Assembly: GCA_964344965.1 (NCBI GenBank)
Contig: CAYFPJ010000007.1
Coordinates: 1 to 48,273, forward strand
Reading direction: 5' to 3'
Length of the DNA stretch: 48,273 nt
Origin: an uncultured Gammaproteobacteria bacterium
Lineage (GTDB): Bacteria > Patescibacteriota > Patescibacteriia > Magasanikbacterales > UBA922
Positions 1,043 through 34,363 of this stretch are shown one piece after another. A model generated the notes under the pieces. The model saw only the letters and a list, made by a program, of their open reading frames with translations, was not told where the DNA came from and made no database searches. The position numbers were made by a program, and so were the translations under genes. The first letter of the stretch is position 1. Every line of letters starts with the position of its first letter.

Positions 1043-4039
1043 ATGAAAAAGAAAGATTTCCACAGTCGCTCTTATGGTTATACCAACAAAGAAGCACCCA
1101 AAACCCCAAAGGCGACTCCAAAACCAAAGCAGATCAAGCCACTCAAAAAAAGAACTAAGAAAAAACCTCCCGTTGATCTTACCAAAATACTACTTTACCC
1201 TTTTCAAATCCTAGGTTGGATTTTGGTAAACATATGGAAATTGTGGAAAAAAAGACCAAAACTAAGCAAAAAAAAGAAAAAATCTCTACGAAAAAAAACA
1301 AAAAAAATCTTCATCTGGGGAAGTGTCATGGGAATAATGTCTGTTTTCATTTTATTTGCCTGGGCCGGTAAAGACCTCCCAGACCCAGACAAACTTACAG
1401 ACCGTCAAGTGGCCGAAAGTACCAAAATATATGATCGAACAGGAGAGCACTTACTGTATGAAATATTTGCCGATAAAAAAAGAACCATAGTGGAGTTGGA
1501 AGAAATCCCCCAACACCTCATTGACGGAGTGATTGCCACCGAAGATAGTAAATTTTATGAACACAAAGGAATACGACCTCTTAGTATGCTCCGCGCTGTA
1601 GTGATGGGACTACTACCTGGAAAAAGAGTGGCTGGCACATCTACCCTAACCCAACAGCTAGTCAAAAATGCAATTCTCACCAACGAAAGAAAAATTAGTC
1701 GCAAAATAAAAGAGGTGATCCTATCTGTACAGTTGGAACAAAAATTTGATAAAGACCAAATTTTAAAAATTTACTTCAACGAAATACCCTACGGCTCCAC
1801 CAACTATGGAATAGAGTCGGCTTCTCAGAGTTATTTTGGAAAACATGTTTCAGACTTAGACCTACAAGAGTCAGCCACTTTGGCAGGATTACCAAAAGCC
1901 CCCTCCAGATATCTCAAAGACAGCGAATCACTAAAAACCAGGAGAGACTTTGTGCTCCGAAGAATGCATGAAGAGGGATACATCACAGAAGAAGAAAAAA
2001 AAGAAGCCCAAAACATGCCGGTGACACTAGAGAGGCGCTTCGGCAACATCAAAGCTCCTCACTTTGTCCTTTATGTCAAAGAGAAATTAGTTGAAGAATA
2101 TGGAGAACAGGTCGTGGACACTGGCGGCCTAAAGGTGTTGACCACCCTTGACTGGGACAAGCAACAGGCAGCAGAAAAGGCTGTATTAGAGGTTGGGGAA
2201 GAAGTGCTGGCTGCAGCAGAAGCAGACAACACTTCTCTGGTAGCTCTAGATCCCAAAACTGGCCACATCTTGGCAATGGTGGGGTCACGTGATTTTGAGA
2301 ATGAAGAAATTGACGGACAGTTCAATGTTGCCACACTAGGAAGAAGGCAACCAGGATCTTCCTTTAAACCAATCGTCTATACAGCAGCCTTCGAAAAAGG
2401 ATATACTCCTGAAACAGTATTATTTGATGTTATCACAAATTTTGCAGCCTCTGGAAAACCATACCAACCTCTCAACTACGACTTACAAGAACATGGACCA
2501 GTGACAATGCGTCAAGCTCTCCAAGGATCACTAAATATCCCATCAGTAAAAACTTTGTATTTAGTAGGAGCAAAAAAGGGAGTGGAGTTTGCTGAACGTC
2601 TTGGGTACAGCACTTTCAGGACAGGAGACTTCGGTCTTTCTCTGGTATTGGGTGGTGGAGAAGTGAGGCCAATCGAACATATCAATGCCTTTGCAATCCT
2701 GGCCAACGGTGGGGTGAGGCACAAGCCAACAAGCATTCTGAGGGTGGAGGACAACACAAAAGAAATTTTGGCAGAGTGGAAAAAGACAAAAGGTGAAAAA
2801 GTCCTAGACACAGAAATAACAAACACCATTTCAAACGTTTTAAGTGATGATGGGGCCAGAGCATATGCTTTTGGTGGAGGAGGAATACTAACCTTGCCAG
2901 GAAGGCCGGTGGCGGCAAAGACCGGAACAACAAACAACTACGTAGATGCCTGGACAGTGGGATACACCCCCAGCCTGGTTGCCGGAGTGTGGGCTGGCAA
3001 CACCGACAACTCTCCAATGAAGCCAGGTTTTGGTGGAAGCAAGGTGGCTGCCCCAATCTGGAATGCCTTCATGAAAGAAGTACTACAAGGCACAAGTGTC
3101 GAAAGCTTCCCTCCAGCCCCCAAAAGTAAAACAAGTAAAGCAGTCCTAAACGGTTCGGCCGGAGGAGGCATAACCCTCAAAGTAGATAAGGTGACTGGAA
3201 AAATTGCCACCAGCTCCACACCAAAAAACTATATTGTAGAACGCACCTACACTCAGCCCCATTCCATTCTTCACTATGTTTACAAAGATGAACCGCAAGG
3301 AGAAACCCCAACAGAACCAAACAACGACCCTCAATATAGCATATGGGAGGCCGCCATTCAGGGTTGGATCAAAAGAAAACAGGAAGAAAACCCAGACTGG
3401 GAAATAAGTTTTGAAGAGCCGCCAACAGAGTACGACGACATCCACTCTCTAGAGCTGATCCCAACATTAGAGATAGTATCTCCAAGCGCAAGCTCTACAC
3501 TCGACACCAGACAGATTGATACTGATATCCGCGTTACTGCTCCACGAGGGGTGACTAAGGTTACCTATCGTCTAGATGGTAAATATGTAGGAGTAATCAG
3601 AGACCATCCTTTCAATCTGAACTATTATGCTGAATTTTTGGAACCAGGCGCCCACATCTTAACCATAATTGTAGAAGACGACGTTGGGAATAAACTAGAA
3701 GAATCTATCCCGTTCACGCTGGATGTGGAAACAAAGCAGCCAGAAATATCTTTTGCTCAGGACTATACAGAGCTCTTCTCTGAGGATTTCCCTAAAACCC
3801 TAGTCTTGAATCACTTCAAATTAAATGAAATAGAGGAAATAAAAATCTATTTAGAGAAAAACAATGGAGACAAAGAGCTCATAAAGGCAACGGATGATTT
3901 TTCCAATCTGTTCAACAACCAACTACTAGTAGAATGGAAAGAAAAACCAGAGACCGGAAAATACACACTAAAAATAGAAACAACAATCATTGGCGGTCAA
4001 TCAAAAATAAGTGATCATGCCGAAATAACAATAAAATAA
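1043..4039 (+). CDS. Class A penicillin-binding protein (glycosyltransferase GT51 + transpeptidase) with Lys-rich N-terminus and long C-terminal extension
   Basis: 998-aa ORF. GT51 motifs (ATEDSKFYEHKGI, RKIKE), transpeptidase motifs (SSFKP, KTGTT), and an N-terminal TM segment. Confidence 0.9.
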   Translation: MKKKDFHSRSYGYTNKEAPKTPKATPKPKQIKPLKKRTKKKPPVDLTKILLYPFQILGWILVNIWKLWKKRPKLSKKKKKSLRKKTKKIFIWGSVMGIMSVFILFAWAGKDLPDPDKLTDRQVAESTKIYDRTGEHLLYEIFADKKRTIVELEEIPQHLIDGVIATEDSKFYEHKGIRPLSMLRAVVMGLLPGKRVAGTSTLTQQLVKNAILTNERKISRKIKEVILSVQLEQKFDKDQILKIYFNEIPYGSTNYGIESASQSYFGKHVSDLDLQESATLAGLPKAPSRYLKDSESLKTRRDFVLRRMHEEGYITEEEKKEAQNMPVTLERRFGNIKAPHFVLYVKEKLVEEYGEQVVDTGGLKVLTTLDWDKQQAAEKAVLEVGEEVLAAAEADNTSLVALDPKTGHILAMVGSRDFENEEIDGQFNVATLGRRQPGSSFKPIVYTAAFEKGYTPETVLFDVITNFAASGKPYQPLNYDLQEHGPVTMRQALQGSLNIPSVKTLYLVGAKKGVEFAERLGYSTFRTGDFGLSLVLGGGEVRPIEHINAFAILANGGVRHKPTSILRVEDNTKEILAEWKKTKGEKVLDTEITNTISNVLSDDGARAYAFGGGGILTLPGRPVAAKTGTTNNYVDAWTVGYTPSLVAGVWAGNTDNSPMKPGFGGSKVAAPIWNAFMKEVLQGTSVESFPPAPKSKTSKAVLNGSAGGGITLKVDKVTGKIATSSTPKNYIVERTYTQPHSILHYVYKDEPQGETPTEPNNDPQYSIWEAAIQGWIKRKQEENPDWEISFEEPPTEYDDIHSLELIPTLEIVSPSASSTLDTRQIDTDIRVTAPRGVTKVTYRLDGKYVGVIRDHPFNLNYYAEFLEPGAHILTIIVEDDVGNKLEESIPFTLDVETKQPEISFAQDYTELFSEDFPKTLVLNHFKLNEIEEIKIYLEKNNGDKELIKATDDFSNLFNNQLLVEWKEKPETGKYTLKIETTIIGGQSKISDHAEITIK

Positions 4040-4040
4040 T

Positions 4041-4289
4041 ATGAAAAAAATAAACGAACGCAAAACAAATATTTTCAAAAACATTGCCATAATAATATTT
4101 GGGGCAATCATCTACCCATCAATCAACTCTAGCCTACACTCCACAAGCCCCGAAAGCATAGACGGATACCTCATGATAGTCAGTATCCTAATAGTTACAG
4201 CATGTTTTGCAAATTTTGCCTTTAGCCATGAAAACACAAAAAAACAATGCAGGGCGTACTATTGTCCCATTTTACAACCTTTATTCTGA
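4041..4289 (+). CDS. Small hydrophobic protein, possibly the 5' half of a frameshifted 4-TM membrane protein
   Basis: 82-aa ORF with two hydrophobic segments. It overlaps the next ORF by 43 nt around an A7 run (4238-4244). Confidence 0.4.
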   Translation: MKKINERKTNIFKNIAIIIFGAIIYPSINSSLHSTSPESIDGYLMIVSILIVTACFANFAFSHENTKKQCRAYYCPILQPLF

Positions 4290-4438
4290 TGCTACTAATA
4301 TTAATCTTACTTGAAATTTTGGTTGTGTCATCAAAAATTGTATATCCAGAACTTTATAGCACGACCTTACTGATCGCCACCCTTCTTTATTTGGGTACGG
4401 CTTTATATGATTTTTGGGACATAGAGCGCCTAAGGTAA
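4247..4438 (+). CDS. Small hydrophobic protein, possibly the 3' half of the same membrane protein
   Basis: 63-aa ORF with two hydrophobic segments. One extra A in the A7 run would fuse it to 4041..4289. Confidence 0.4.
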   Translation: MQGVLLSHFTTFILMLLILILLEILVVSSKIVYPELYSTTLLIATLLYLGTALYDFWDIERLR

Positions 4439-4454
4439 AACAAAAGAGATCTAA

Positions 4455-12325: not shown

Positions 12326-13849
12326 CTACTCCGTTTTCGCCCGATATTGAAGAGCCTCTGCCACATGGGTGGTTTCAATACCATCTTTCCCATCCAGATC
12401 AGCAATAGTCCGGGCTAGCTTCAAAATACGATGATAACTACGGGCCGAAAGATGCATTTGTTGGACTGCCTGTTTGAGGAGATTAATAGATTGATCATTG
12501 AGTTTACAATATTCGCGCACCTCTCTATTGCGCATCTCACTGTTGGTGGTGTGCGGAGTATTTTTTAATCTAATGTTTTGACGTTCTCTTGCTTCTTCTA
12601 CTCGAGCGCGAATTTTTTCACTTGGTTCACCTAAGTCATCTTTACTTAACTTTTCAAATTTTACACGAGGCACTTCGACATGGAGGTCGATCCTGTCGAG
12701 CAGGGGGCCACTGATTTTTTTCTGGTATCTAGCAATGGATAGTGGTGAACAAAGGCAGTTTCGTTCTGGGTCACTGGCATAGCCACATGGGCAAGGGTTT
12801 TGACTAGCGACCATGGTGAAGCGAGCTGGGAAAGAGATTGTCCCTTGCGCCCTGGAGATTGTGATTACTCCGTCTTCCAGTGGTTGGCGCAAATTTTCTA
12901 AGACAGCGCGAGGAAATTCTGGAAATTCATCGAGGAATAATACTCCACGGTGAGCCAGGGAGATTTCTCCAGGTCGAGGAAACTTGCCGCCACCGACAAG
13001 AGCCACTCCACTGGCTGTATGGTGAGGGGCACGAAATGGTCTAGTTGTTACCAGAGGTTTGTCACTGGGTAGTATCCCAGCTACAGAATATATTTTGGTC
13101 ACCTCAATCGCTTCTTCGATTGTCATTTTTGGCAAAATGCTTGGCATGGTGCGAGCGAGGAGGGTCTTGCCAGAGCCAGGCGGACCAGAGAGGAGGATGT
13201 TGTGCGCGCCACTGGCAGCGATCTCCATCGCTCGTTTGACAAACTCCTGGCCCTTCACATATTTCATATCCATCTCATAACTGCTTTTTGAAAACCATTT
13301 TTCAATCGGCTGACCAGGGAGCGGAGAGATTTCTTTTGCTCCGGCCAGATGATTGACTATGTCTTGAAATTTTTCTACCGGATATACTTCTACCCCTTGA
13401 ATCAGGCTGGCTTCTTTGGCATTGATTGCTGGGACAAACAATTTCTTGTATCCTTTTTTTTCAGCAAAAATTGCTAGTGGCAGAATTCCATTGGTGTGAC
13501 GTAGTGTTCCGTCGAGAGCCAGCTCGCCGACAAAAAGAGAATCAGACAGATCAATGTCAGACGGATTTTCAATGGTCATATACATTCCCACTGCCATAGG
13601 CAGATCATACATGCTACCTTCTTTTCGTACGTCTGCTGGGGCGAGGTTGATGACAATGCGTGAATTGTTGGGAAATTTGAGATTAGTATTTTTCCAGGCT
13701 GTCCTGATGCGTTCTTTGGCTTCTTGGATGGCTGTGTCTGGCAAGCCGACGATCTGATAGCCAGGCCAGCTGCCCGCCACATCGACTTCCACAGTGATTG
13801 GTGTACAATCCAAGCCAAGCACTGCGGCGGAGTTTATTTTGGTGAACAT
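12326..13849 (-). CDS. comM: YifB/ComM family Mg-chelatase-like ATPase
   Basis: 507 aa with Lon-like N-domain, Walker A GPPGSGKT, FLDEFPEF, and a C-terminal ChlI-like domain. Confidence 0.9.
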   Translation of the reverse strand: MFTKINSAAVLGLDCTPITVEVDVAGSWPGYQIVGLPDTAIQEAKERIRTAWKNTNLKFPNNSRIVINLAPADVRKEGSMYDLPMAVGMYMTIENPSDIDLSDSLFVGELALDGTLRHTNGILPLAIFAEKKGYKKLFVPAINAKEASLIQGVEVYPVEKFQDIVNHLAGAKEISPLPGQPIEKWFSKSSYEMDMKYVKGQEFVKRAMEIAASGAHNILLSGPPGSGKTLLARTMPSILPKMTIEEAIEVTKIYSVAGILPSDKPLVTTRPFRAPHHTASGVALVGGGKFPRPGEISLAHRGVLFLDEFPEFPRAVLENLRQPLEDGVITISRAQGTISFPARFTMVASQNPCPCGYASDPERNCLCSPLSIARYQKKISGPLLDRIDLHVEVPRVKFEKLSKDDLGEPSEKIRARVEEARERQNIRLKNTPHTTNSEMRNREVREYCKLNDQSINLLKQAVQQMHLSARSYHRILKLARTIADLDGKDGIETTHVAEALQYRAKTE

Positions 13850-13855
13850 ATTGTA

Positions 13856-13890
13856 TGTGCGAAATTACGAAAAATACGAAAAATACGAAA
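13856..13890 (-). promoter_or_regulatory. Tandem TTTCGTA-word motif immediately upstream of the comM start codon
   Basis: Read in gene direction: tttcgtatttttcgtatttttcgtaatttcgcaca, then 6 nt, then ATG. A near-identical arrangement precedes the ABC ATPase gene (27923-27957). Confidence 0.45.
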
Positions 13891-14009
13891 CGATTTAGTT
13901 CATATCTTTAGTGTAGCACAAACAAAAAAACCAGCTATTTTACTGGTCTTTTTACTATGTTTTTATATTGTTTGTTTATAATTTTTTGTATTTATTTTAA
14001 TATCTTAGA

Positions 14010-18600: not shown

Positions 18601-18652
18601 AGGATTAGTGAACACATTTGAACTTCCATTCAGAAATAGAAACTCAAACGGA

Positions 18653-18696
18653 TCTCGGAAGCAGGCAGCGATGACTCGTACTGCGAGCTTCCGAGA
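18653..18696 (-). terminator. GC-rich hairpin downstream of the histidine phosphatase gene
   Basis: tctcggaagc / gcttccgaga, a 10-bp perfect stem. A second hairpin, cttcgc/gcgaag, lies at about 18710-18730. Confidence 0.4.
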
Positions 18697-18765
18697 AGGA
18701 GCAGCCGTGCTTCGCCTGGAGGAAGCGAAGTGCGACATTGTGGACGACTCAGTGGTGACGGGTTC

Positions 18766-19494
18766 CTACAGAGGGCCTTCATCCCCTTTTTGGGATCTGA
18801 ACAGCGGGGCGAGTACACGTCCCTGGCGCAGCGGTGGGGGATTCATGAGCTCCCTATTCGGGATGTGTCGGCACCCGACGAATTCCCCTCCAGCCTTCAG
18901 GATTACTTCGATGACATCCCCGTATGCCATCATTTCGTCCGGGTCGGGGAACCACTTGTCCAGGATGTTTGGGTGTCGAAGTGCTGTCACGATGTGCTCA
19001 GCCCTATACCCAGAGTGGGCACCGAAAAGGATATTCTTGCCGCCTATATTTGAGACGGCTTTCTCGAATTCCAGAAAAAGCGCGGCTCCCTCCCTGCCTC
19101 GCTCGAAGCGGGTCTTGTCGAGGAAGCGTGAGACTTTCTGGTCCCACTTTCTGTAGCCCAAGAGCTGTTCGGTCGTTATCTCCAGCTCTGCCGCGAGATG
19201 TCTGATGTTGAATTTAGCTCTGTTCTCCATCTCATCCAGAGGATTGAGGCGTGAGTCAGTCATAATTCGCGTATCCGTCTGCTGAGCCCCACGCAACACG
19301 CATGCTACGGTTTCTATCCCCCTCAGATAGAGGCTGGAGAATGCAAAGGCAAAATACAGGTTCATGCCAAGCGTTACTCCAACTACCTTGAGCTTCTCAC
19401 GCCACTCGGGCGTGAGCTCGTTGTACTCGTGCTCGCCGTGACGAACGCCGAGGATTCGGTATTCGTCGTCCTTCAACTGACGAAACTGCAACAT
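18766..19494 (-). CDS. Histidine phosphatase family protein (phosphoglycerate-mutase-like), visibly GC-rich
   Basis: RHGEHE motif near the N-terminus (ILGVRHGEHEYN), later GAHSG. Start at ATG 19494 is preceded by SD gggggag at 6-nt spacing. The longer ORF to 19692 runs into AT-rich non-coding sequence. Confidence 0.75.
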   Translation of the reverse strand: MLQFRQLKDDEYRILGVRHGEHEYNELTPEWREKLKVVGVTLGMNLYFAFAFSSLYLRGIETVACVLRGAQQTDTRIMTDSRLNPLDEMENRAKFNIRHLAAELEITTEQLLGYRKWDQKVSRFLDKTRFERGREGAALFLEFEKAVSNIGGKNILFGAHSGYRAEHIVTALRHPNILDKWFPDPDEMMAYGDVIEVILKAGGEFVGCRHIPNRELMNPPPLRQGRVLAPLFRSQKGDEGPL

Positions 19495-19626
19495 TATACA
19501 CTCCCCCGAAACCAGGCCTCGGTGGCGGGCGCTAAAAAAGTTGAAAGAACGAAGAAATTTCCGTCGATATCGTGAAATACTGGATTTCTTGACATTGAAC
19601 AAGTAAATATATATAATAAATAAAGA

Positions 19627-25379: not shown

Positions 25380-26090
25380 TTAGTCAAATTTATAATAATA
25401 AATCAATCCAGAGACAATCGCTCTTGCCATTTTAGTTAGCTTTTCTTTGTCAGTCTGTAGGTCGTGTAAGTTGGAGGCTACTTTTTTTCTATCTCCACTA
25501 GAAATGGAGTTTTTTGGAATATCTATCAGAAGGCCGCGACCAAATTTTTGCATTAGCTTGGCGGCAGTGATGTTGCTGGTCATTGGATGAGGATTATTTC
25601 TACCAAATTCAAAATCGTTCTCTTGTAGCGAACTTTCTATATTTTTGGTCAGAGTCGGATCGGATATGTCTACTCCTGGCTTTTCTATTGTACTGGTCGC
25701 TACATTGATAACCCTTGGCTCTCCCCAATGAAAAGGACTGATATAAGAATCCAGATATCCTGAAATATTGTTTGGCGCAAGTGCTACTGGGTCTGGACCA
25801 TATTTTGCAGATTTGGGGTTGAAAGGGGCCATGGTGTGGAGATCAATCCAGAATCCAGTATCAGACAAATTTTGAAAGTAGTCAAAGATTTGCTCTAGTG
25901 TTTTTTGGTGGAGATTTTGTAGATACTTTAGTATCTTAGGGTATTTATTTTTGTCAAAAATATTTCTCACGGCAGAGTCTGGACTGATCCTTCCGATATC
26001 TAGGATTCCACGAGGGATTTGGATGTCAATCACATCTACCCGCATTTCTTTATTTTTTTCAATGACTTTTTTGGCAATCTTGTGAACCAA
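25380..26090 (-). CDS. N-formylglutamate amidohydrolase (FGase) family protein, C-terminal ~80%; 5' part separated by a repeat insertion
   Basis: IPRGILDIGR resembles the family xRxxxDxNR motif. The open frame continues upstream into repeat copy 1, and the TTG at 26090 is only the first start-like codon. Confidence 0.55.
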   Translation of the reverse strand: MVHKIAKKVIEKNKEMRVDVIDIQIPRGILDIGRISPDSAVRNIFDKNKYPKILKYLQNLHQKTLEQIFDYFQNLSDTGFWIDLHTMAPFNPKSAKYGPDPVALAPNNISGYLDSYISPFHWGEPRVINVATSTIEKPGVDISDPTLTKNIESSLQENDFEFGRNNPHPMTSNITAAKLMQKFGRGLLIDIPKNSISSGDRKKVASNLHDLQTDKEKLTKMARAIVSGLIYYYKFD

Positions 26091-26119
26091 TTTTGTGACC
26101 CCGACATCTTTTTCAATTT

Positions 26120-26267
26120 TTAAATCTTTAAGCGGTTTTATTCCTCGATGCTTGCATCGAAAAAGTGAAAACTAACATTGGTTGAAATAAGATTTTCTGC
26201 CAATACCCCGCAGCTTGCTGCGGGGATGGCCCGATGAAGTCTTACTTAAACCAAATTTACTTTTATT
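26120..26267 (+). mobile_element. 148-nt MITE-like repeat, copy 1 (inside the FGase-family gene)
   Basis: Base-for-base identical to 29683-29830, 36409-36556 and 43054-43201. Confidence 0.85.
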
Positions 26268-26427
26268 AGTCAAGAAATGTTTTTTGCTCTACTTGCAGAG
26301 CTTCTGTGATCTCTGGATTATCTTTTAAAAATTTTTGCCCATCATCACCATGAAGATTTAATAAAAAATAATCTGCCTTGGTTCTGTTTTCTCCATAATT
26401 TGTGGTGTTTATATATTTTACACTCAT
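26266..26427 (-). pseudogene. N-terminal 53-codon fragment of the interrupted FGase-family gene
   Basis: MSVKYINTTNYGENRTKADYFLLNLHGDDGQKFLKDNPEITEALQVEQKTFLD then TAA, which is contributed at the repeat boundary. Deleting 26123-26267 joins it in frame to LKIEKDVGVTKLVHK... Confidence 0.55.
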
Positions 26428-26537
26428 ATTTATAACACTGATTACACAGATTTAGAAAGGATTGCACGGGCATGAGATGAAGGTGTGTTACTGAGGCAAA
26501 CATCTTGTAGTCTGGCAACGTTCTATATTCTTTTGTT

Positions 26538-26870
26538 CCTGACCCTTTGGCTCTTTGGTTCAGGAGGGGTCATAAAGGTAACTAGACACATGTTGTTATC
26601 TGTCTACTGTTCCTTTCCCCAGCTATTTGTGTCATTCGCCGCTGGGGATGGCAGATTTTTTGAGACGTCACGCCGCCTGCTCCCCGTCCTCTCGGACGAG
26701 GGTCAGAGCGGCGGGCTGCTCGTTGCCAGTCTCCTGGCAACGAGCAGCCTTCATTCGGTCCTGCCACTCACCCCACGTCACCGTGGGGTGGCAGTAGAAG
26801 AACCCCGGCTGGGGGCGCCACGCCCCCTGAGTCTCGTTCATTCCTTCCTCCATGTCAAGGCATATTTGGA
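26538..26870. other. Visibly GC-rich array of adjacent near-perfect hairpins (unidentified structured RNA or foreign remnant)
   Basis: Stems are: cctgacc/ggttcagg; ccccagc/gctgggg; a long imperfect stem at about 26671-26715; a 15-16 bp perfect stem 26715-26729/26734-26748 with loop tctc; ctgcca..ccccacg-tcac-cgtgggg-tggcag (26761-26794); and gggggcg-cca-cgccccc (26811-26827). Confidence 0.5.
26668..26853 (-). CDS. Doubtful 61-aa GC-rich ORF
   Basis: An internal ATG is preceded by ggagg. However, the ORF contains a 34-nt perfect palindrome and other hairpins, and all frames are open in this GC-rich patch. Confidence 0.2.
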   Translation of the reverse strand: MEEGMNETQGAWRPQPGFFYCHPTVTWGEWQDRMKAARCQETGNEQPAALTLVREDGEQAA

Positions 26871-26900
26871 GAGAATTTTTTCTCTACAAACATGCTTTGA

Positions 26901-27009
26901 CAAAAGAAAAAACCTTCGTCATATTGACGAAGGTTTTTTATTAGAAATATTTATTTCAGCGAAAACACAACCTTCGTCGGGAGAGGGGCATCATCATGCT
27001 CATCATCAT
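26901..27009 (-). promoter_or_regulatory. Candidate leader-peptide attenuator A (Met-codon-rich mini-ORF + alternative hairpins + U-run)
   Basis: Mini-ORF 27009->26956 is MMMSMMMPLSRRRLCFR*. gacgaaggtt occurs inside the ORF (26978-26969) and as the terminator 3' arm (26920-26911). Both are complementary to aaccttcgtc (26935-26926). The terminator is followed by ttttcttttg. Confidence 0.4.
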
Positions 27010-27045
27010 GATTGTGTTTAGAATAGAGTTCATAATAGTTGTTAG

Positions 27046-27140
27046 AAATAAAAAACCTTCGCTTGTTTTGCGAAGGCTTTGGAGATTTTTGGTGTTAGTT
27101 AAATCAGGCCTTCGCAAGGGGTCATCATCATGGCCATCAT
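27046..27140 (-). promoter_or_regulatory. Candidate leader-peptide attenuator B (same architecture as A)
   Basis: Mini-ORF 27140->27099 is MMAMMMTPCEGLI*. tgcgaaggc in the ORF (27116-27108) and gcgaagg (27062-27056) both pair with gccttcgca (27077-27069). The terminator is followed by ttttttattt. Confidence 0.4.
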
Positions 27141-27279
27141 GTTGGTAGATTGTGTAGCAATATTTTTCATATTATTTATACCTTACACTGATACCTTCAG
27201 TTTGTCAATGATCAACTGTGGAATATCCAAAAAAGAAAAAATTTGGTATAATCACAATGTTGTTTTTAACATAAAAAAT

Positions 27280-27597
27280 ATGCCTGTTATCGAGGCCTTA
27301 AATTTTATCACCAGCTATGTTGGTTTGATCATCCAATACATTGGACTTTTTATTGTAGCTATTTCTGTGATTATTGGCCTGGCTAAGCTACCGATGAAGG
27401 AGTATACAGTAGATCACGTTCGTAAGCATATGGCTGCCCGAATTATTTTTGGGTTGGAGTTCGTGATTGCGGCTGACATCTTGCTTGCTACTGTAGCTAC
27501 CAGCTATAATGAGATTTTGAGACTGGGAGCTATCGTACTTATTAGAATCATGCTTGGTTATGTCTTGCGCAAAGACATGGCTGAGTTGAAGGGTTAA
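27280..27597 (+). CDS. DUF1622-like small membrane protein
   Basis: MPVIEALNFITSYVGLIIQYIGLFIVAISVIIGL... An extended -10 (tggtataat, 27244-27252) upstream supports this start over ATG 27130. Confidence 0.55.
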   Translation: MPVIEALNFITSYVGLIIQYIGLFIVAISVIIGLAKLPMKEYTVDHVRKHMAARIIFGLEFVIAADILLATVATSYNEILRLGAIVLIRIMLGYVLRKDMAELKG

Positions 27598-27765: not shown

Positions 27766-27957
27766 GTGTACGAAATTACTAACATTACGCCATGCCTACC
27801 TACCGGCAGGAAAGATACAAAAAAGGCAATTAAGTCGTTAGGATTCCTCCTGAAAGGCGGGTTGACTCCAAACCATGTCTGTTGCGACCGCCTTTCGGCG
27901 GTAATCATAGTCTAGTAGCAACATTTCGTACCTTTCGTACCTTTCGTATTTCGCACA
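27766..27957. repeat. Word-type inverted-repeat element without ORF, between tRNA-Ala and the ABC ATPase gene
   Basis: The left end tgtgtacgaaattac matches the reverse complement of the right end, tgtgcgaaatac. Internal hairpins are gaaaggcgg/ccgcctttc and cctaccggcagg. The right arm carries three ttcgta words. Confidence 0.5.
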
Positions 27958-27963
27958 TCTTTT

Positions 27964-34301: not shown

Positions 34302-34363
34302 AAAGGATTCCCGGCGAAAGCCGGGTCAGTACCCACCCGGCTTTCGCCGGGAATCCTTTTTTT
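34302..34363. terminator. 24-bp perfect inverted repeat plus T-run (word-type palindrome acting as terminator)
   Basis: aaaggattcccggcgaaagccggg (34302-34325) pairs with cccggctttcgccgggaatccttt (34336-34359), then tttt. Confidence 0.75.

Follow-up and report, generated by a model that had tools for sequence, protein, structure and literature searches.

Can a run of methionine codons in a short leader ORF couple the transcription of a downstream operon to the supply of charged Met-tRNA? The known leader-peptide attenuators respond to trp, his, phe, leu, thr and ilv, and in mycobacteria to cys; the sensing of methionine has been ascribed to SAM riboswitches, T-boxes and protein regulators. The question is raised by two tandem units on the minus strand of a Patescibacteria contig, of which we analyzed a stretch of 48,273 nucleotides (the window). 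Each unit combines a run of Met codons inside a short ORF with an RNA arm that may pair either with the end of that ORF or with the 3′ arm of a terminator. We conclude that each unit is probably a transcription attenuator of the ribosome-mediated, leader-peptide type, which gauges how much charged Met-tRNA is available, a conclusion reached without expression data. Methionine is named as the signal because, before the same operon, some relatives have this mini-gene and others a SAM riboswitch.

Two methionine-codon units in tandem

Unit B is the first to be transcribed and consists of the following features.

27203-27208, minus strand: TTGACA, the −35 hexamer of promoter P1, read from the sequence
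27180-27185, minus strand: TAAGGT, the −10 hexamer of P1, with a 17-nt spacer from the −35 hexamer and 9 nt to the ATG
27099-27170, minus strand: leader ORF B by ORF calling, MKNIATQSTNMMAMMMTPCEGLI and stop, 23 codons, ATG at 27170
27123-27140, minus strand: Met-codon run, five of six codons ATG, from the sequence
27108-27117, minus strand: S1 (UUGCGAAGGC), the antiterminator arm within the ORF, from S1:S2 pairing
27068-27077, minus strand: S2 (GCCUUCGCAA), the shared arm whose partner is S1 or S3, from folding
27046-27062, minus strand: S3 (GCGAAGG, 27062-27056) and U tract UUUUUUAUUU; S2:S3 is the intrinsic terminator

The 9-nt distance between the −10 hexamer and the ATG implies a near-leaderless mRNA. 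The stop codon of ORF B is TAA (27101-27099, minus strand), and the 3′ end of S1 lies 6 nt ahead of it. The terminator-like hairpin with its U tract extends over 27080-27052 on the minus strand, and the competing S1:S2 duplex has a free energy of −18.3 kcal/mol, a strength reached by none of 500 shuffles of the ORF tail.

Unit A follows with the same order of elements and an additional upstream segment.

26956-27033, minus strand: leader ORF A by ORF calling, MNSILNTIMMMSMMMPLSRRRLCFR and stop, 25 codons, ATG at 27033
27010-27019, minus strand: upstream segment AAACACAAUC, which by folding pairs with GGUUGUGUUU (26972-26963)
26989-27009, minus strand: Met-codon run, six of seven codons ATG, from the sequence
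26969-26978, minus strand: S1 (GACGAAGGUU), from its duplex with S2
26926-26935, minus strand: S2 (AACCUUCGUC), from folding
26901-26920, minus strand: S3 (GACGAAGGUU, 26920-26911) and U tract UUUUCUUUUG, from folding
26852-26902, minus strand: long hairpin directly after terminator A, from folding (z-score −7.7)

ORF A ends in TGA (26958-26956, minus strand). Its S1:S2 duplex has a free energy of −16.8 kcal/mol (matched by none of 500 ORF-tail shuffles), and its terminator-like hairpin with U tract extends over 26939-26907 on the minus strand, with a stem of 15 bp when the A/U extension is counted. By analogy with segment 1 of a classical attenuator, the pairing of AAACACAAUC with GGUUGUGUUU may sequester the S1 of unit A in untranslated RNA. 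No P1-type promoter was found in the sequence ahead of ORF A, so that access to it is probably by read-through of terminator B. A hairpin in the place equivalent to the one after terminator A is folded in a homologous contig, L064 (z-score −7.0), and is seen in the sequence of two others, L094 and L088.

A first-pass annotation of this DNA had described the Met runs, pairing arms and stop codons of both units, and all of these sequences and minus-strand coordinates are right. It had read shorter mini-ORFs: their stops at 27099 and 26956 hold, but they were started too far downstream, and the true ATGs lie in frame at 27170 and 27033. It had also found no well-spaced −10 element for the TTGACA at 27208-27203; TAAGGT at 27185-27180 is such an element, and the homologs described below have equal geometry.

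A chance origin of the combined pattern of Met run, terminator and third arm can be excluded. The pattern ATGATGNNNATGATGATG occurs twice in 48 kb, only at units A and B, where shuffles give an expectation of 0.01. Both hairpins were scored as terminator-like on the minus strand. When about 35 terminator-like hairpins in the window were compared, the upstream segment pairs with the 5′ arm at −17.4 and −16.4 kcal/mol in the two units, against −3 to −11 kcal/mol for the remainder, with a 25-bp GC-rich hairpin at 34302-34359 (−20.4 kcal/mol) as the sole exception. The S1:S2 duplexes are thus outliers relative to nearly all terminator-like hairpins of the window.

The start of ORF B is also unexceptional for this genome. 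No Shine-Dalgarno (SD) sequence was found ahead of any of 30 window genes, and a TAnnnT box lies 4-12 nt 5′ of the ATG in 12 of the 30, compared to 17% of random positions. Because genes here lack an SD sequence and often have a −10 box near the ATG, the beginning of ORF B looks like a normal gene start.

Conserved units and their exchange with a SAM-I riboswitch

We found homologous units in three further Patescibacteria contigs (L064, L088 and L094), for a total of five units in four organisms. All three have the Met run, a CCCC motif, the three arms, the U tract, the start codon and the reading frame. Their runs contain four to six Met codons, and the distance from run to S1 is the same in all five units. 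The ORF stops inside S1 or within about 11 nt after it, the stop codon and S2 are 21-26 nt apart in all units, and every homologous unit has an intrinsic terminator. ORF B resembles the ORFs of L088 (MKNYRNNSTMMMVMMMTPLERR and stop) and L064 (MKNISHKFGMQMMMPLARRLFSA and stop); the C-terminus of ORF A resembles that of L064 (MMMPLARRLF), with indels between them that preserve the frame. A promoter of conserved geometry (TTGACA, 17-18 nt, TAnnnT, 9 nt, ATG) precedes unit B and the three homologs; it is known from sequence alone, and transcription from it is inferred at most.

The conserved N-terminus of the short ORF is MKN(I/Y). Beyond the Met run the peptide is read in two frames (MMMTP... and MMMPL...) over constant nucleotides, CCCC..GCG(A/C)AGG. 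Two peptide frames over constant nucleotides indicate that it is the RNA, not the peptide, that is constrained. Arm sequences vary between units, yet complementarity is kept, with S1:S2 duplexes of −16.3 to −18.3 kcal/mol in the five units (reached by 0-9 of 500 shuffles). In the antiterminator helix, three pairs have changed on both sides and 87% of positions are paired, versus 31-44% with a slid partner; this pairing level was matched by 5-11 of 500 shuffles. In the terminator helix, four pairs have changed on both sides and 100% are paired, with 2 of 500 shuffles as high. The slid-partner controls gave 31-64% for both helices together. The covariation statistics are weak because only five units are known.

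These data bear on several earlier expectations. The first-pass annotation had argued that compensating changes preserve the alternative pairing, which the three double-sided changes in the antiterminator and four in the terminator bear out. It had considered its proposal refuted if the mini-ORFs were not conserved in relatives, or if the hairpins served only as bidirectional terminators and the codon runs were repeat words. The three relatives keep the Met run, frame, start codon and arms, and both helices covary, so that the proposal stands on both counts. On its remaining condition, minus-strand transcription entering the units, the evidence is confined to the promoter sequence.

Further units were sought by several routes. 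A DNA pattern scan of metagenomes returned 67 matches, of which 66 were chance or coding matches and one, L064, was genuine; viral contigs gave no match to the Met-run pattern. A profile of the five units found no further units by nhmmer in 643 kb searched, and BLAST of 26590-27220 against plasmids and phages found no match. Synteny of the window's DUF1622 gene, examined in GTDB genomes and a set of 5.8 billion proteins, revealed no Met-run unit beside DUF1622 in relatives (the nearest at 56-72% identity), which shows the unit to be independent of that gene; His-rich ORFs beside DUF1622 in two other loci (L015 and L017) had no similarity to the window.

What, then, would the units control? In L088 and L094 the unit lies directly 5′ of two genes that form an operon, the first for a GC-rich PGM1/BesA-like ATP-grasp ligase and the second for an FGase-like amidohydrolase. 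The orthologous operon of three other lineages (L086, L091/L092 and L095) is preceded instead by a SAM-I riboswitch with a terminator after it, and these loci have no short ORF. The riboswitches score 62.1, 64 and 62.8 bits, respectively, with Rfam model RF00162 (gathering score 44.4). In the window no SAM aptamer was detected at the gathering threshold, nor at E <= 10 within 26000-27400. That the same operon carries either a Met-run unit or a SAM-I riboswitch is strong support for Met-responsive, ribosome-mediated attenuation. The riboswitch in three lineages ties the operon to methionine/SAM, although its biochemical role is not established.

The window retains a homolog of the operon's second gene:

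25380-26427, minus strand: FGase-like amidohydrolase gene, the presumed regulated gene, from homology search

Its homology to the operon gene is clear (E between 5e-52 and 1e-37, with N- and C-terminal parts colinear). The homologs were found only by exhaustive HMMER search; a word-index search and a metagenome scan with this protein found nothing, and neither it nor its homologs match a Pfam or NCBIfam model. Its predicted structure (pLDDT 94) matches N-formylglutamate amidohydrolase 2q7s best in the PDB (E = 2.9e-4), with a TM-score of only 0.38, followed by poly-gamma-glutamate hydrolases. The FGase family is presumably Pfam PF05013.

An attenuation model and its competitors

According to the proposed mechanism, transcription would start at P1, just 5′ of ATG 27170, to yield a nearly leaderless mRNA whose 23-codon leader ORF would be translated while RNA polymerase advances. 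When methionine is sufficient, the ribosome would reach the stop codon and cover S1, since the stop lies within S1 or at most about 11 nt after it; the S2:S3 hairpin and the U tract would then terminate transcription. When Met-tRNA is scarce, the ribosome would stall on the five or six Met codons, in a run that ends 4-10 nt before S1. With the ribosome so stalled, the free S1 would capture S2 once it is made, no terminator would form and the polymerase would read through. Within the window, read-through of unit B would feed into the duplicated unit A, which is arranged in the classical four segments (AAACACAAUC:S1 region, S1:S2 and S2:S3). The regulated target would be the downstream operon, in relatives the PGM1/BesA-like ligase and the FGase-like amidohydrolase. 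The sequence features, their conservation and covariation and the exchange with the riboswitch are observed directly; translation of the short ORF, stalling at the Met codons and read-through are each inferred.

The homologs suggest a second version of this layout. In L064, L088 and L094, the Met run is directly followed by a CCCC(U/G)C motif (S0) that complements S3, so that RNA without a ribosome on it can still form a hairpin next to the U tract. We infer that in this nested version S3 would be unpaired only with a ribosome on the last Met codons.

Folding the leaders in silico with a ribosome mask gave results that vary with the assumed footprint and ignore kinetics. With a ribosome placed at the stop codon, unit B, L064, L094 and L088 fold into the terminator (P = 0.87-1.0), and free RNA or a ribosome on earlier Met codons leads to S1:S2. 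The expected switch appears in unit B, L094 and L088, partly in L064 and not at equilibrium in unit A, which folds into the terminator for every ribosome position; any read-through of unit A would depend on kinetics. With the A site on the last Met codons, pairing of the 3′ arm is at its lowest (unit B, L094 and L088). In L064, L094 and L088, the alternative fold pairs S3 too, and it might itself terminate. Given the conserved units, the covariation and the riboswitch swap at the same operon, the trp/his-type attenuator reading of the first-pass annotation is supported.

Homology to working attenuators does not require that the window's own units still work. It is possible, though we hold it unlikely, that they are relics whose controlled operon has decayed, a reading that bears only on what they do today and does not conflict with the mechanism. 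In the window the FGase-like gene falls into two parts, 26427->26266 and about 26125->25380, separated by a frame-changing insert of about 140 nt, and unit A is without its own promoter. The stretch from the leader to the FGase-like gene yielded no ATP-grasp homolog. Where relatives have the ligase gene, the window has a different element:

26668-26853, minus strand: GC-rich segment (about 65% GC) with four strong hairpins and a 61-codon ORF after the SD-like GGAGGAAGGA, from folding and ORFs

No protein homolog of the 61-codon ORF was found. The segment was considered as a remnant of the ATP-grasp gene and rejected as such, with no ligase similarity by tblastn, hmmsearch or hhalign. With the ligase missing and the amidohydrolase split, the local elements may be relics. 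Yet both units are intact, each with an open frame, perfect 10-bp S1:S2 pairing and a good terminator, and the sequence is identical in three independent assemblies. The split gene could also yield two polypeptides, or the insert could be removed, both of which are hypothetical.

Another reading makes the short ORFs independent small-protein genes, with the operon served by a separate promoter and the Met-rich peptide functional in its own right, for example as substrate or partner of the PGM1-like ligase. PGM1 acts on ribosomal peptides, and the operon's ligase is similar to PGM1, 8ynd and other peptide ligases of the ATP-grasp type. The MKN(I/Y) N-terminus is conserved, and the ORF is flanked by a promoter and a terminator. 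After the terminator, a TTGACA-like hexamer with a spaced −10 occurs in the window (TTGTCA-17-AAAAAT, a possible second promoter within the hairpin at 26852-26902), in L064 and above all in L094 (TTGACA-17-TACAAT), the window and L064 versions being weaker. If real, such a second promoter would make read-through less important. We nevertheless consider this reading improbable: L088 has no promoter-like site after its terminator, the peptide beyond the Met run occurs in two frames over conserved nucleotides, the SAM-riboswitch loci have the same operon and no short ORF, and the third arm and its covariation would be left without a role.

If the leaders are attenuators, they could still sense translation in general, through ribosome availability or inhibitors, rather than methionine; any ribosome short of the stop codon would then permit read-through. 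In unit B, free RNA or a ribosome anywhere 5′ of codon 16 indeed gives the antiterminator, which is reminiscent of leaders responsive to translation inhibitors. Against a signal of this kind stand the four to six Met codons kept in five of five units at the same distance from S1, and the exchange of the element for a SAM riboswitch at this operon; we find it less plausible still.

Finally, it is very improbable that the hairpins do no more than terminate transcription in both directions while the ATG/CAT runs are repeat words or belong to the plus strand: hairpin A does have an A run and a T run and a terminator call on both strands, and the plus strand offers SD-like GGAGAGGGG and AAGGGG before ATGs with open frames of 50 and 155 codons, but this genome does not use SD sequences, only the minus strand has an antiterminator arm 5′ of the terminator (the plus-strand upstream duplex has −5.7 kcal/mol), and the sense-strand features are conserved in four organisms. 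Specific plus-strand candidates were rejected individually. A reading of the runs as His codons fails because that CAT frame lacks a start codon. Comparison with homologs, which are 101-133 aa long and start where the 105-aa form starts, rules out an N-terminally extended DUF1622 protein of 155 aa. A type I toxin-antitoxin locus, in which the plus-strand ORFs would encode small hydrophobic proteins, is not supported, as the plus-strand ORFs (26996-27148, and 27130 onward) are unconserved and the antisense ORFs lie in different frames among homologs, here the window and L064.

Relation to known regulators and significance

The units belong to no Rfam leader family. Searches with Rfam at the gathering threshold and at E <= 10 returned only tRNAs and sub-threshold look-alikes of leaders and terminators; the best leader-family match was Thr_leader (RF00506; 32.9 bits, gathering score 55) at 26903-27028 on the minus strand, and His_leader (RF00514) reached 32.6 bits (gathering score 49) on the plus strand. 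Full-text literature searches found no described Met leader peptide, and no leader peptide was reported for methionine operons in Actinobacteria (PMC1262725).

The resemblance to the classical attenuators of Proteobacteria (trp, his, thr, leu, phe and ilv) is close. These also have a leader ORF with a run of codons for a single amino acid, and a terminator and a mutually exclusive antiterminator between which ribosome position chooses; unit A shares their four-segment form. Here, in contrast, the amino acid is methionine, the host is a Patescibacteria (CPR) organism without SD sequences and with nearly leaderless mRNA, three of the units are inferred to nest S0:S3 around S1:S2 rather than arranging the segments serially, and the window's units stand in tandem. 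Exchange of one sensing system for another is a further likeness: leaders of the classical type take the place that a riboswitch or T-box holds at that gene in other lineages, a change described, with the His leader of hisS/hisZ in Bacilli, in PMC2965389.

The polycysteine short ORFs of mycobacteria (bioRxiv 10.1101/834739) offer a second comparison. As described there, they too are leaderless, use a codon run for a sulfur amino acid to sense on behalf of a downstream operon, and act by ribosome pausing that alters mRNA structure. The present units differ in their Met codons and in their output, a canonical intrinsic terminator with a U tract. The SAM-I riboswitch (S box, RF00162) occupies the same place before the same operon, also with a terminator after it, and expression is expected at low methionine/SAM in both cases. 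Its aptamer binds SAM directly and needs no translation, whereas the Met-run unit would read Met-tRNA charging via the ribosome. As with the trpL attenuator of Sinorhizobium meliloti and its rnTrpL sRNA (PMC6614838), the terminated leader here would be a discrete small RNA of about 110 nt, equipped with a promoter and a terminator. The apparent second promoter after the terminator raises a trans role for the Met-run leader as a possibility only, and we obtained no evidence for one.

On balance we favor the view that the Met-run unit represents an undescribed, methionine-specific class of leader peptides in Patescibacteria, which replaces a SAM-I riboswitch at one operon, acts on near-leaderless mRNAs without SD sequences and, in some lineages, nests S0:S3 around S1:S2; the ligase/amidohydrolase pair would then be a methionine/SAM-regulated pathway of unknown chemistry in genomes of reduced size. 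Five aligned units are enough for a covariance model with which to start a broader survey.

If this is true, the operon is a clean natural experiment in which metabolite-sensing and ribosome-sensing RNAs substitute for one another. Bacteria of the candidate phyla radiation, with no SD-led initiation in this genome, would be using translation-coupled attenuation on near-leaderless transcripts. The uncharacterized ATP-grasp ligase/amidohydrolase pair would be flagged for the sulfur amino-acid physiology of these unculturable organisms.

Two tandem candidate leader units and their homologs

Units A and B, the tandem candidate attenuators of the window, each contain a run of ATG codons on the minus strand (27009-26989 in A, 27140-27123 in B), after which come a short open frame and then a hairpin with its U tract. 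Near the end of each frame, a segment of 9-10 nt repeats the hairpin's 3′ arm, all as the first-pass annotation had described. We call this segment S1, the shared 5′ arm S2 and the terminator's 3′ arm S3; the antiterminator S1:S2 and the terminator S2:S3 are mutually exclusive. The pattern ATGATGNNNATGATGATG occurs twice in 48 kb, both times at the units, while shuffled sequences give an expectation of 0.01, and it is not a chance arrangement. Both hairpins score as terminator-like on the minus strand. Across a survey of about 35 terminator-like hairpins in the window, pairing between the 5′ arm and an upstream segment reached -17.4 and -16.4 kcal/mol in the two units and -3 to -11 kcal/mol elsewhere, except for a long GC-rich hairpin at 34302-34359 (-20.4 kcal/mol). 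The units are a diverged tandem duplication of ~135-143 nt.

Two details of the earlier description needed revision. The mini-ORF starts had been placed too far downstream, as each frame extends upstream to an in-frame ATG, and the TTGACA hexamer, thought to lack a well-spaced -10, is followed by TAAGGT after 17 nt. The homologs keep this promoter geometry; unit A lacks such a promoter. At the gathering threshold, Rfam finds tRNAs alone in the window; the unit region matches Thr_leader below threshold (32.9 bits; gathering score 55) and belongs to no Rfam leader family.

To find homologs, we scanned metagenome contigs with a DNA pattern made from the blocks common to units A and B (ATG run, CCCCT, CGAAGG), obtaining 67 matches, 66 of them chance or coding and one a real unit (L064). 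Homologs (~300 aa) of the FGase-like protein encoded downstream came from an exhaustive HMMER search, and their neighborhoods yielded two further units (L094 and L088); with the same protein as query, neither a word index nor a metagenome scan gave matches. The alignment of the five units spans the -35 hexamer to the U tract. A sixth unit was not found in 643 kb of collected sequence, no Met-run unit lies beside the DUF1622 gene in relatives identified through that gene (Patescibacteria matches, 42-72% identical), and plasmid and phage collections contain no DNA similar to the unit region.

Promoters, leader frames and arms of the units
27208-27203 TTGACA, 17 nt, 27185-27180 TAAGGT, 9 nt, ATG; minus strand; unit B promoter
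27170->27099; minus strand; unit B leader ORF, MKNIATQSTNMMAMMMTPCEGLI
27033->26956; minus strand; unit A leader ORF, MNSILNTIMMMSMMMPLSRRRLCFR
L064; promoter TTGACA-17-TATACT, 9 nt, ATG; frame MKNISHKFGMQMMMPLARRLFSA; S1 GCGAAGGC, S2 GCCTTCGC, S3 GCGAGGGTC; T7 tract
L094; TTGACA-18-TAGGCT-9-ATG; frame MRRHFPKMMMNMGLRDQRR; terminator CCTCCGC/GCGGAGG
L088; TTGACA-17-TACAGT-9-ATG; frame MKNYRNNSTMMMVMMMTPLERR; terminator ACCTCGCT/AGCGAGGT

Other collected loci carry features of their own. Two relatives carry a His-rich ORF of 125-128 aa, divergent from the DUF1622 gene and on the minus strand of the locus (L015 3514-3900, L017 1744-2121). The motif SEHH(E/D)HDPHTE is conserved between them, and the ORF, which shows no similarity to the window, may encode a metal binder. 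In L004, an AT-rich relative, a GC-rich hairpin array at 2690-2880 separates a tRNA gene from the DUF1622 gene. L004, L014 and L017 share the motif ATTGTACGAC in this variable region, and L015, L016 and L012 contain it too.

Covariation and modelled ribosome-dependent folding

The mini-ORF is conserved in the relatives: each of the five units has its run of 4-6 Met codons in the frame of a start codon, and a CCCC motif immediately follows every run. The S1:S2 duplex has a free energy of -16.3 to -18.3 kcal/mol in 5/5 units, a level that 0-9 of 500 shuffles attain. The stop codon falls within S1 or no more than ~11 nt past it, and 21-26 nt before S2. Beyond the Met run, the reading frame differs (MMMTP in unit B and L088, MMMPL in unit A and L064) while the nucleotides are kept in both, which indicates a constraint on the RNA and the stop-codon position, not on the peptide. 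Arm sequences vary by lineage (CCUUCG, CCUCCGC, CCUCGC) with pairing maintained. Aligning the five sequences shows 87% pairing and three pairs changed on both sides for the antiterminator, and 100% pairing and four such pairs for the terminator; sliding the partner as a control lowers pairing to 31-64%. With only five sequences, these figures are supportive of the alternative pairing, not conclusive.

We then folded the leaders with a masked stretch imitating the ribosome, an approach whose outcome depends on the assumed footprint. With the mask at the stop codon, the terminator forms in unit B, L064, L094 and L088 (P = 0.87-1.0); in free RNA, or with the mask on earlier Met codons, S1:S2 forms. 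In unit B, pairing of the 3′ arm falls to its minimum (P = 0.02-0.08) with the A site over the last three Met codons and rises to 0.99 one codon on; the last Met codons of L094 and L088 give a comparable minimum. At equilibrium, unit A folds into the terminator for all ribosome states; S1:S2 forms when the nascent RNA ends at S2, and in untranslated RNA the S1 region pairs with AAACACAAUC upstream of the Met run, an arrangement known from classical four-segment attenuators.

The CCCC(U/G)C motif after the Met run (S0) is complementary to S3 in L064, L094 and L088, where a long hairpin, still ending at the U tract, could therefore form in untranslated RNA. Under such a nested four-segment logic, only a ribosome on the Met run, covering S0 but not S1, would prevent termination. 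This ribosome-mediated mechanism, nested logic included, is an inference from sequence and thermodynamic models, without expression data. Every sORF-type leader has a further long hairpin directly after the terminator (window 26852-26902; L064 1176-1249; L094 ~2012-2052; L088 ~1971-2021), with z-scores of -7.7 and -7.0 where folded. Downstream of the U tract, the window, L064 and, most clearly, L094 have a TTGACA-like hexamer and a spaced -10, and no promoter-like hexamer was found there in L088. Such a hexamer may be a second promoter, in which case read-through would weigh less.

The downstream operon and its incomplete copy in the window

Relatives carry the FGase-like gene as the downstream member of a conserved pair. 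The upstream member has a strong Shine-Dalgarno (SD) sequence and encodes a protein of ~420-467 aa, whose profile matches the ATP-grasp peptide ligase 8ynd (E = 2.5e-6), the L-propargylglycine-L-glutamate ligase 8yi6 and PGM1 3wvq. In several Patescibacteria lineages its GC content is 56-64%, against 31-47% in the adjacent FGase-like gene.

SAM-I riboswitches and gene pairs in relatives
L086; riboswitch 1392-1493, 62.1 bits; gene pair 1637-3987
L091/L092; riboswitch 1628-1733, 64 bits; gene pair (L091) 1997-4448
L095; riboswitch 1790-1893, 62.8 bits; gene pair 2021-4403
L094; no riboswitch found (Rfam); gene pair 2070-4424
L088; no riboswitch found (Rfam); gene pair ~2050-4397

The 'FGase-family' label of the first-pass annotation is weakly supported. 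The predicted structure (pLDDT 94) has as its best PDB match the N-formylglutamate amidohydrolase 2q7s (E = 2.9e-4, TM-score 0.38), followed by poly-gamma-glutamate hydrolases; the protein has no Pfam or NCBIfam match. Alignment with the homologs shows the window's copy (25380-26427, minus strand) to be in two parts, a 53-codon N-terminal ORF at 26427->26266 and the remainder at ~26125->25380, separated by ~140 nt that shift the frame and contain the hairpin CCCCGCAGCAAGCTGCGGGG. This copy may be a pseudogene, or the ~140 nt may be a small inserted element. As the ligase gene is absent and the amidohydrolase gene interrupted, the window's units may be intact relics.

The units are flanked on one side by the DUF1622 gene (from 27281, plus strand) and on the other by a 65% GC segment (26668-26853), an AT-rich spacer and the FGase-like gene, all on the minus strand. 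In a genome of ~39% GC, this segment is an island occupying the position of the relatives' GC-rich ligase gene, to which it has no detectable similarity. It folds with a z-score of -11.6 into four strong hairpins, three of them with minus-strand GNRA loops, and contains a 61-codon ORF after the SD-like GGAGGAAGGA, with a coding-like GC periodicity (0.68/0.52/0.81) and no homolog found. Further GC-rich islands, up to 62% GC, lie within or beside ORFs at 18641-19540 and 13101-13260. A hairpin and T run resembling a terminator lie at 26630-26660 on the plus strand, without an obvious gene upstream on that strand, and may end a small plus-strand RNA from ~26430-26660.

The closest DUF1622 homologs carry the Magasanikbacteria name, identifying a Patescibacteria genome of that type, and the region is present in identical copies in three ENA assemblies from one project. 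SD sequences are absent from the window's genes, and a TAnnnT box lies 4-12 nt before the ATG in 12 of 30 genes (40%; 17% at random positions), together suggesting that leaderless or short-leader mRNAs are widespread. Three tandem TTTCGTA-type repeats followed by TTTCGCACAT occur at ~27920-27963 and ~13850-13895, just upstream of an ABC transporter ATPase gene (start 27964) and a minus-strand gene (start 13849); these repeats resemble a common operator of a single regulator.

Alternation with the SAM-I riboswitch

Three lineages have a SAM-I riboswitch upstream of the gene pair, above the Rfam gathering score of 44.4. In L094 and L088, the Met-run unit occupies the riboswitch position, and the window's units lie upstream of its own FGase-like gene copy. 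An exchange between a riboswitch or T-box and a leader peptide at one gene is a known evolutionary pattern (PMC2965389). A simple distance tree of the amidohydrolases does not separate the two leader types; it is poorly resolved, with every pair at only 33-43% identity.

It is not excluded that the sORF is an independent small-protein gene, possibly encoding a peptide-ligase substrate, but this would leave unexplained the third arm, the conservation of nucleotides across the frame change and the sORF's absence from riboswitch loci. A general translation sensor accounts for neither the conserved Met run nor its alternation with a SAM sensor. Plus-strand readings (His codons, hydrophobic ORFs, a DUF1622 extension) are contradicted by the evidence.

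We infer that the units work like classical leader-peptide attenuators and like the polycysteine sORFs of mycobacteria, which are leaderless (10.1101/834739). Full-text literature searches found no described methionine leader peptide, and in Actinobacteria an earlier survey (PMC1262725) reported no RNA element at methionine operons. Leader-peptide attenuation itself is known; we rate as new the amino-acid specificity, the phylum and, partly, the topology. In the absence of expression data, we read the Met-codon run as a putative sensor of methionine supply because it alternates with a SAM sensor, an alternation that would be hard to explain otherwise.
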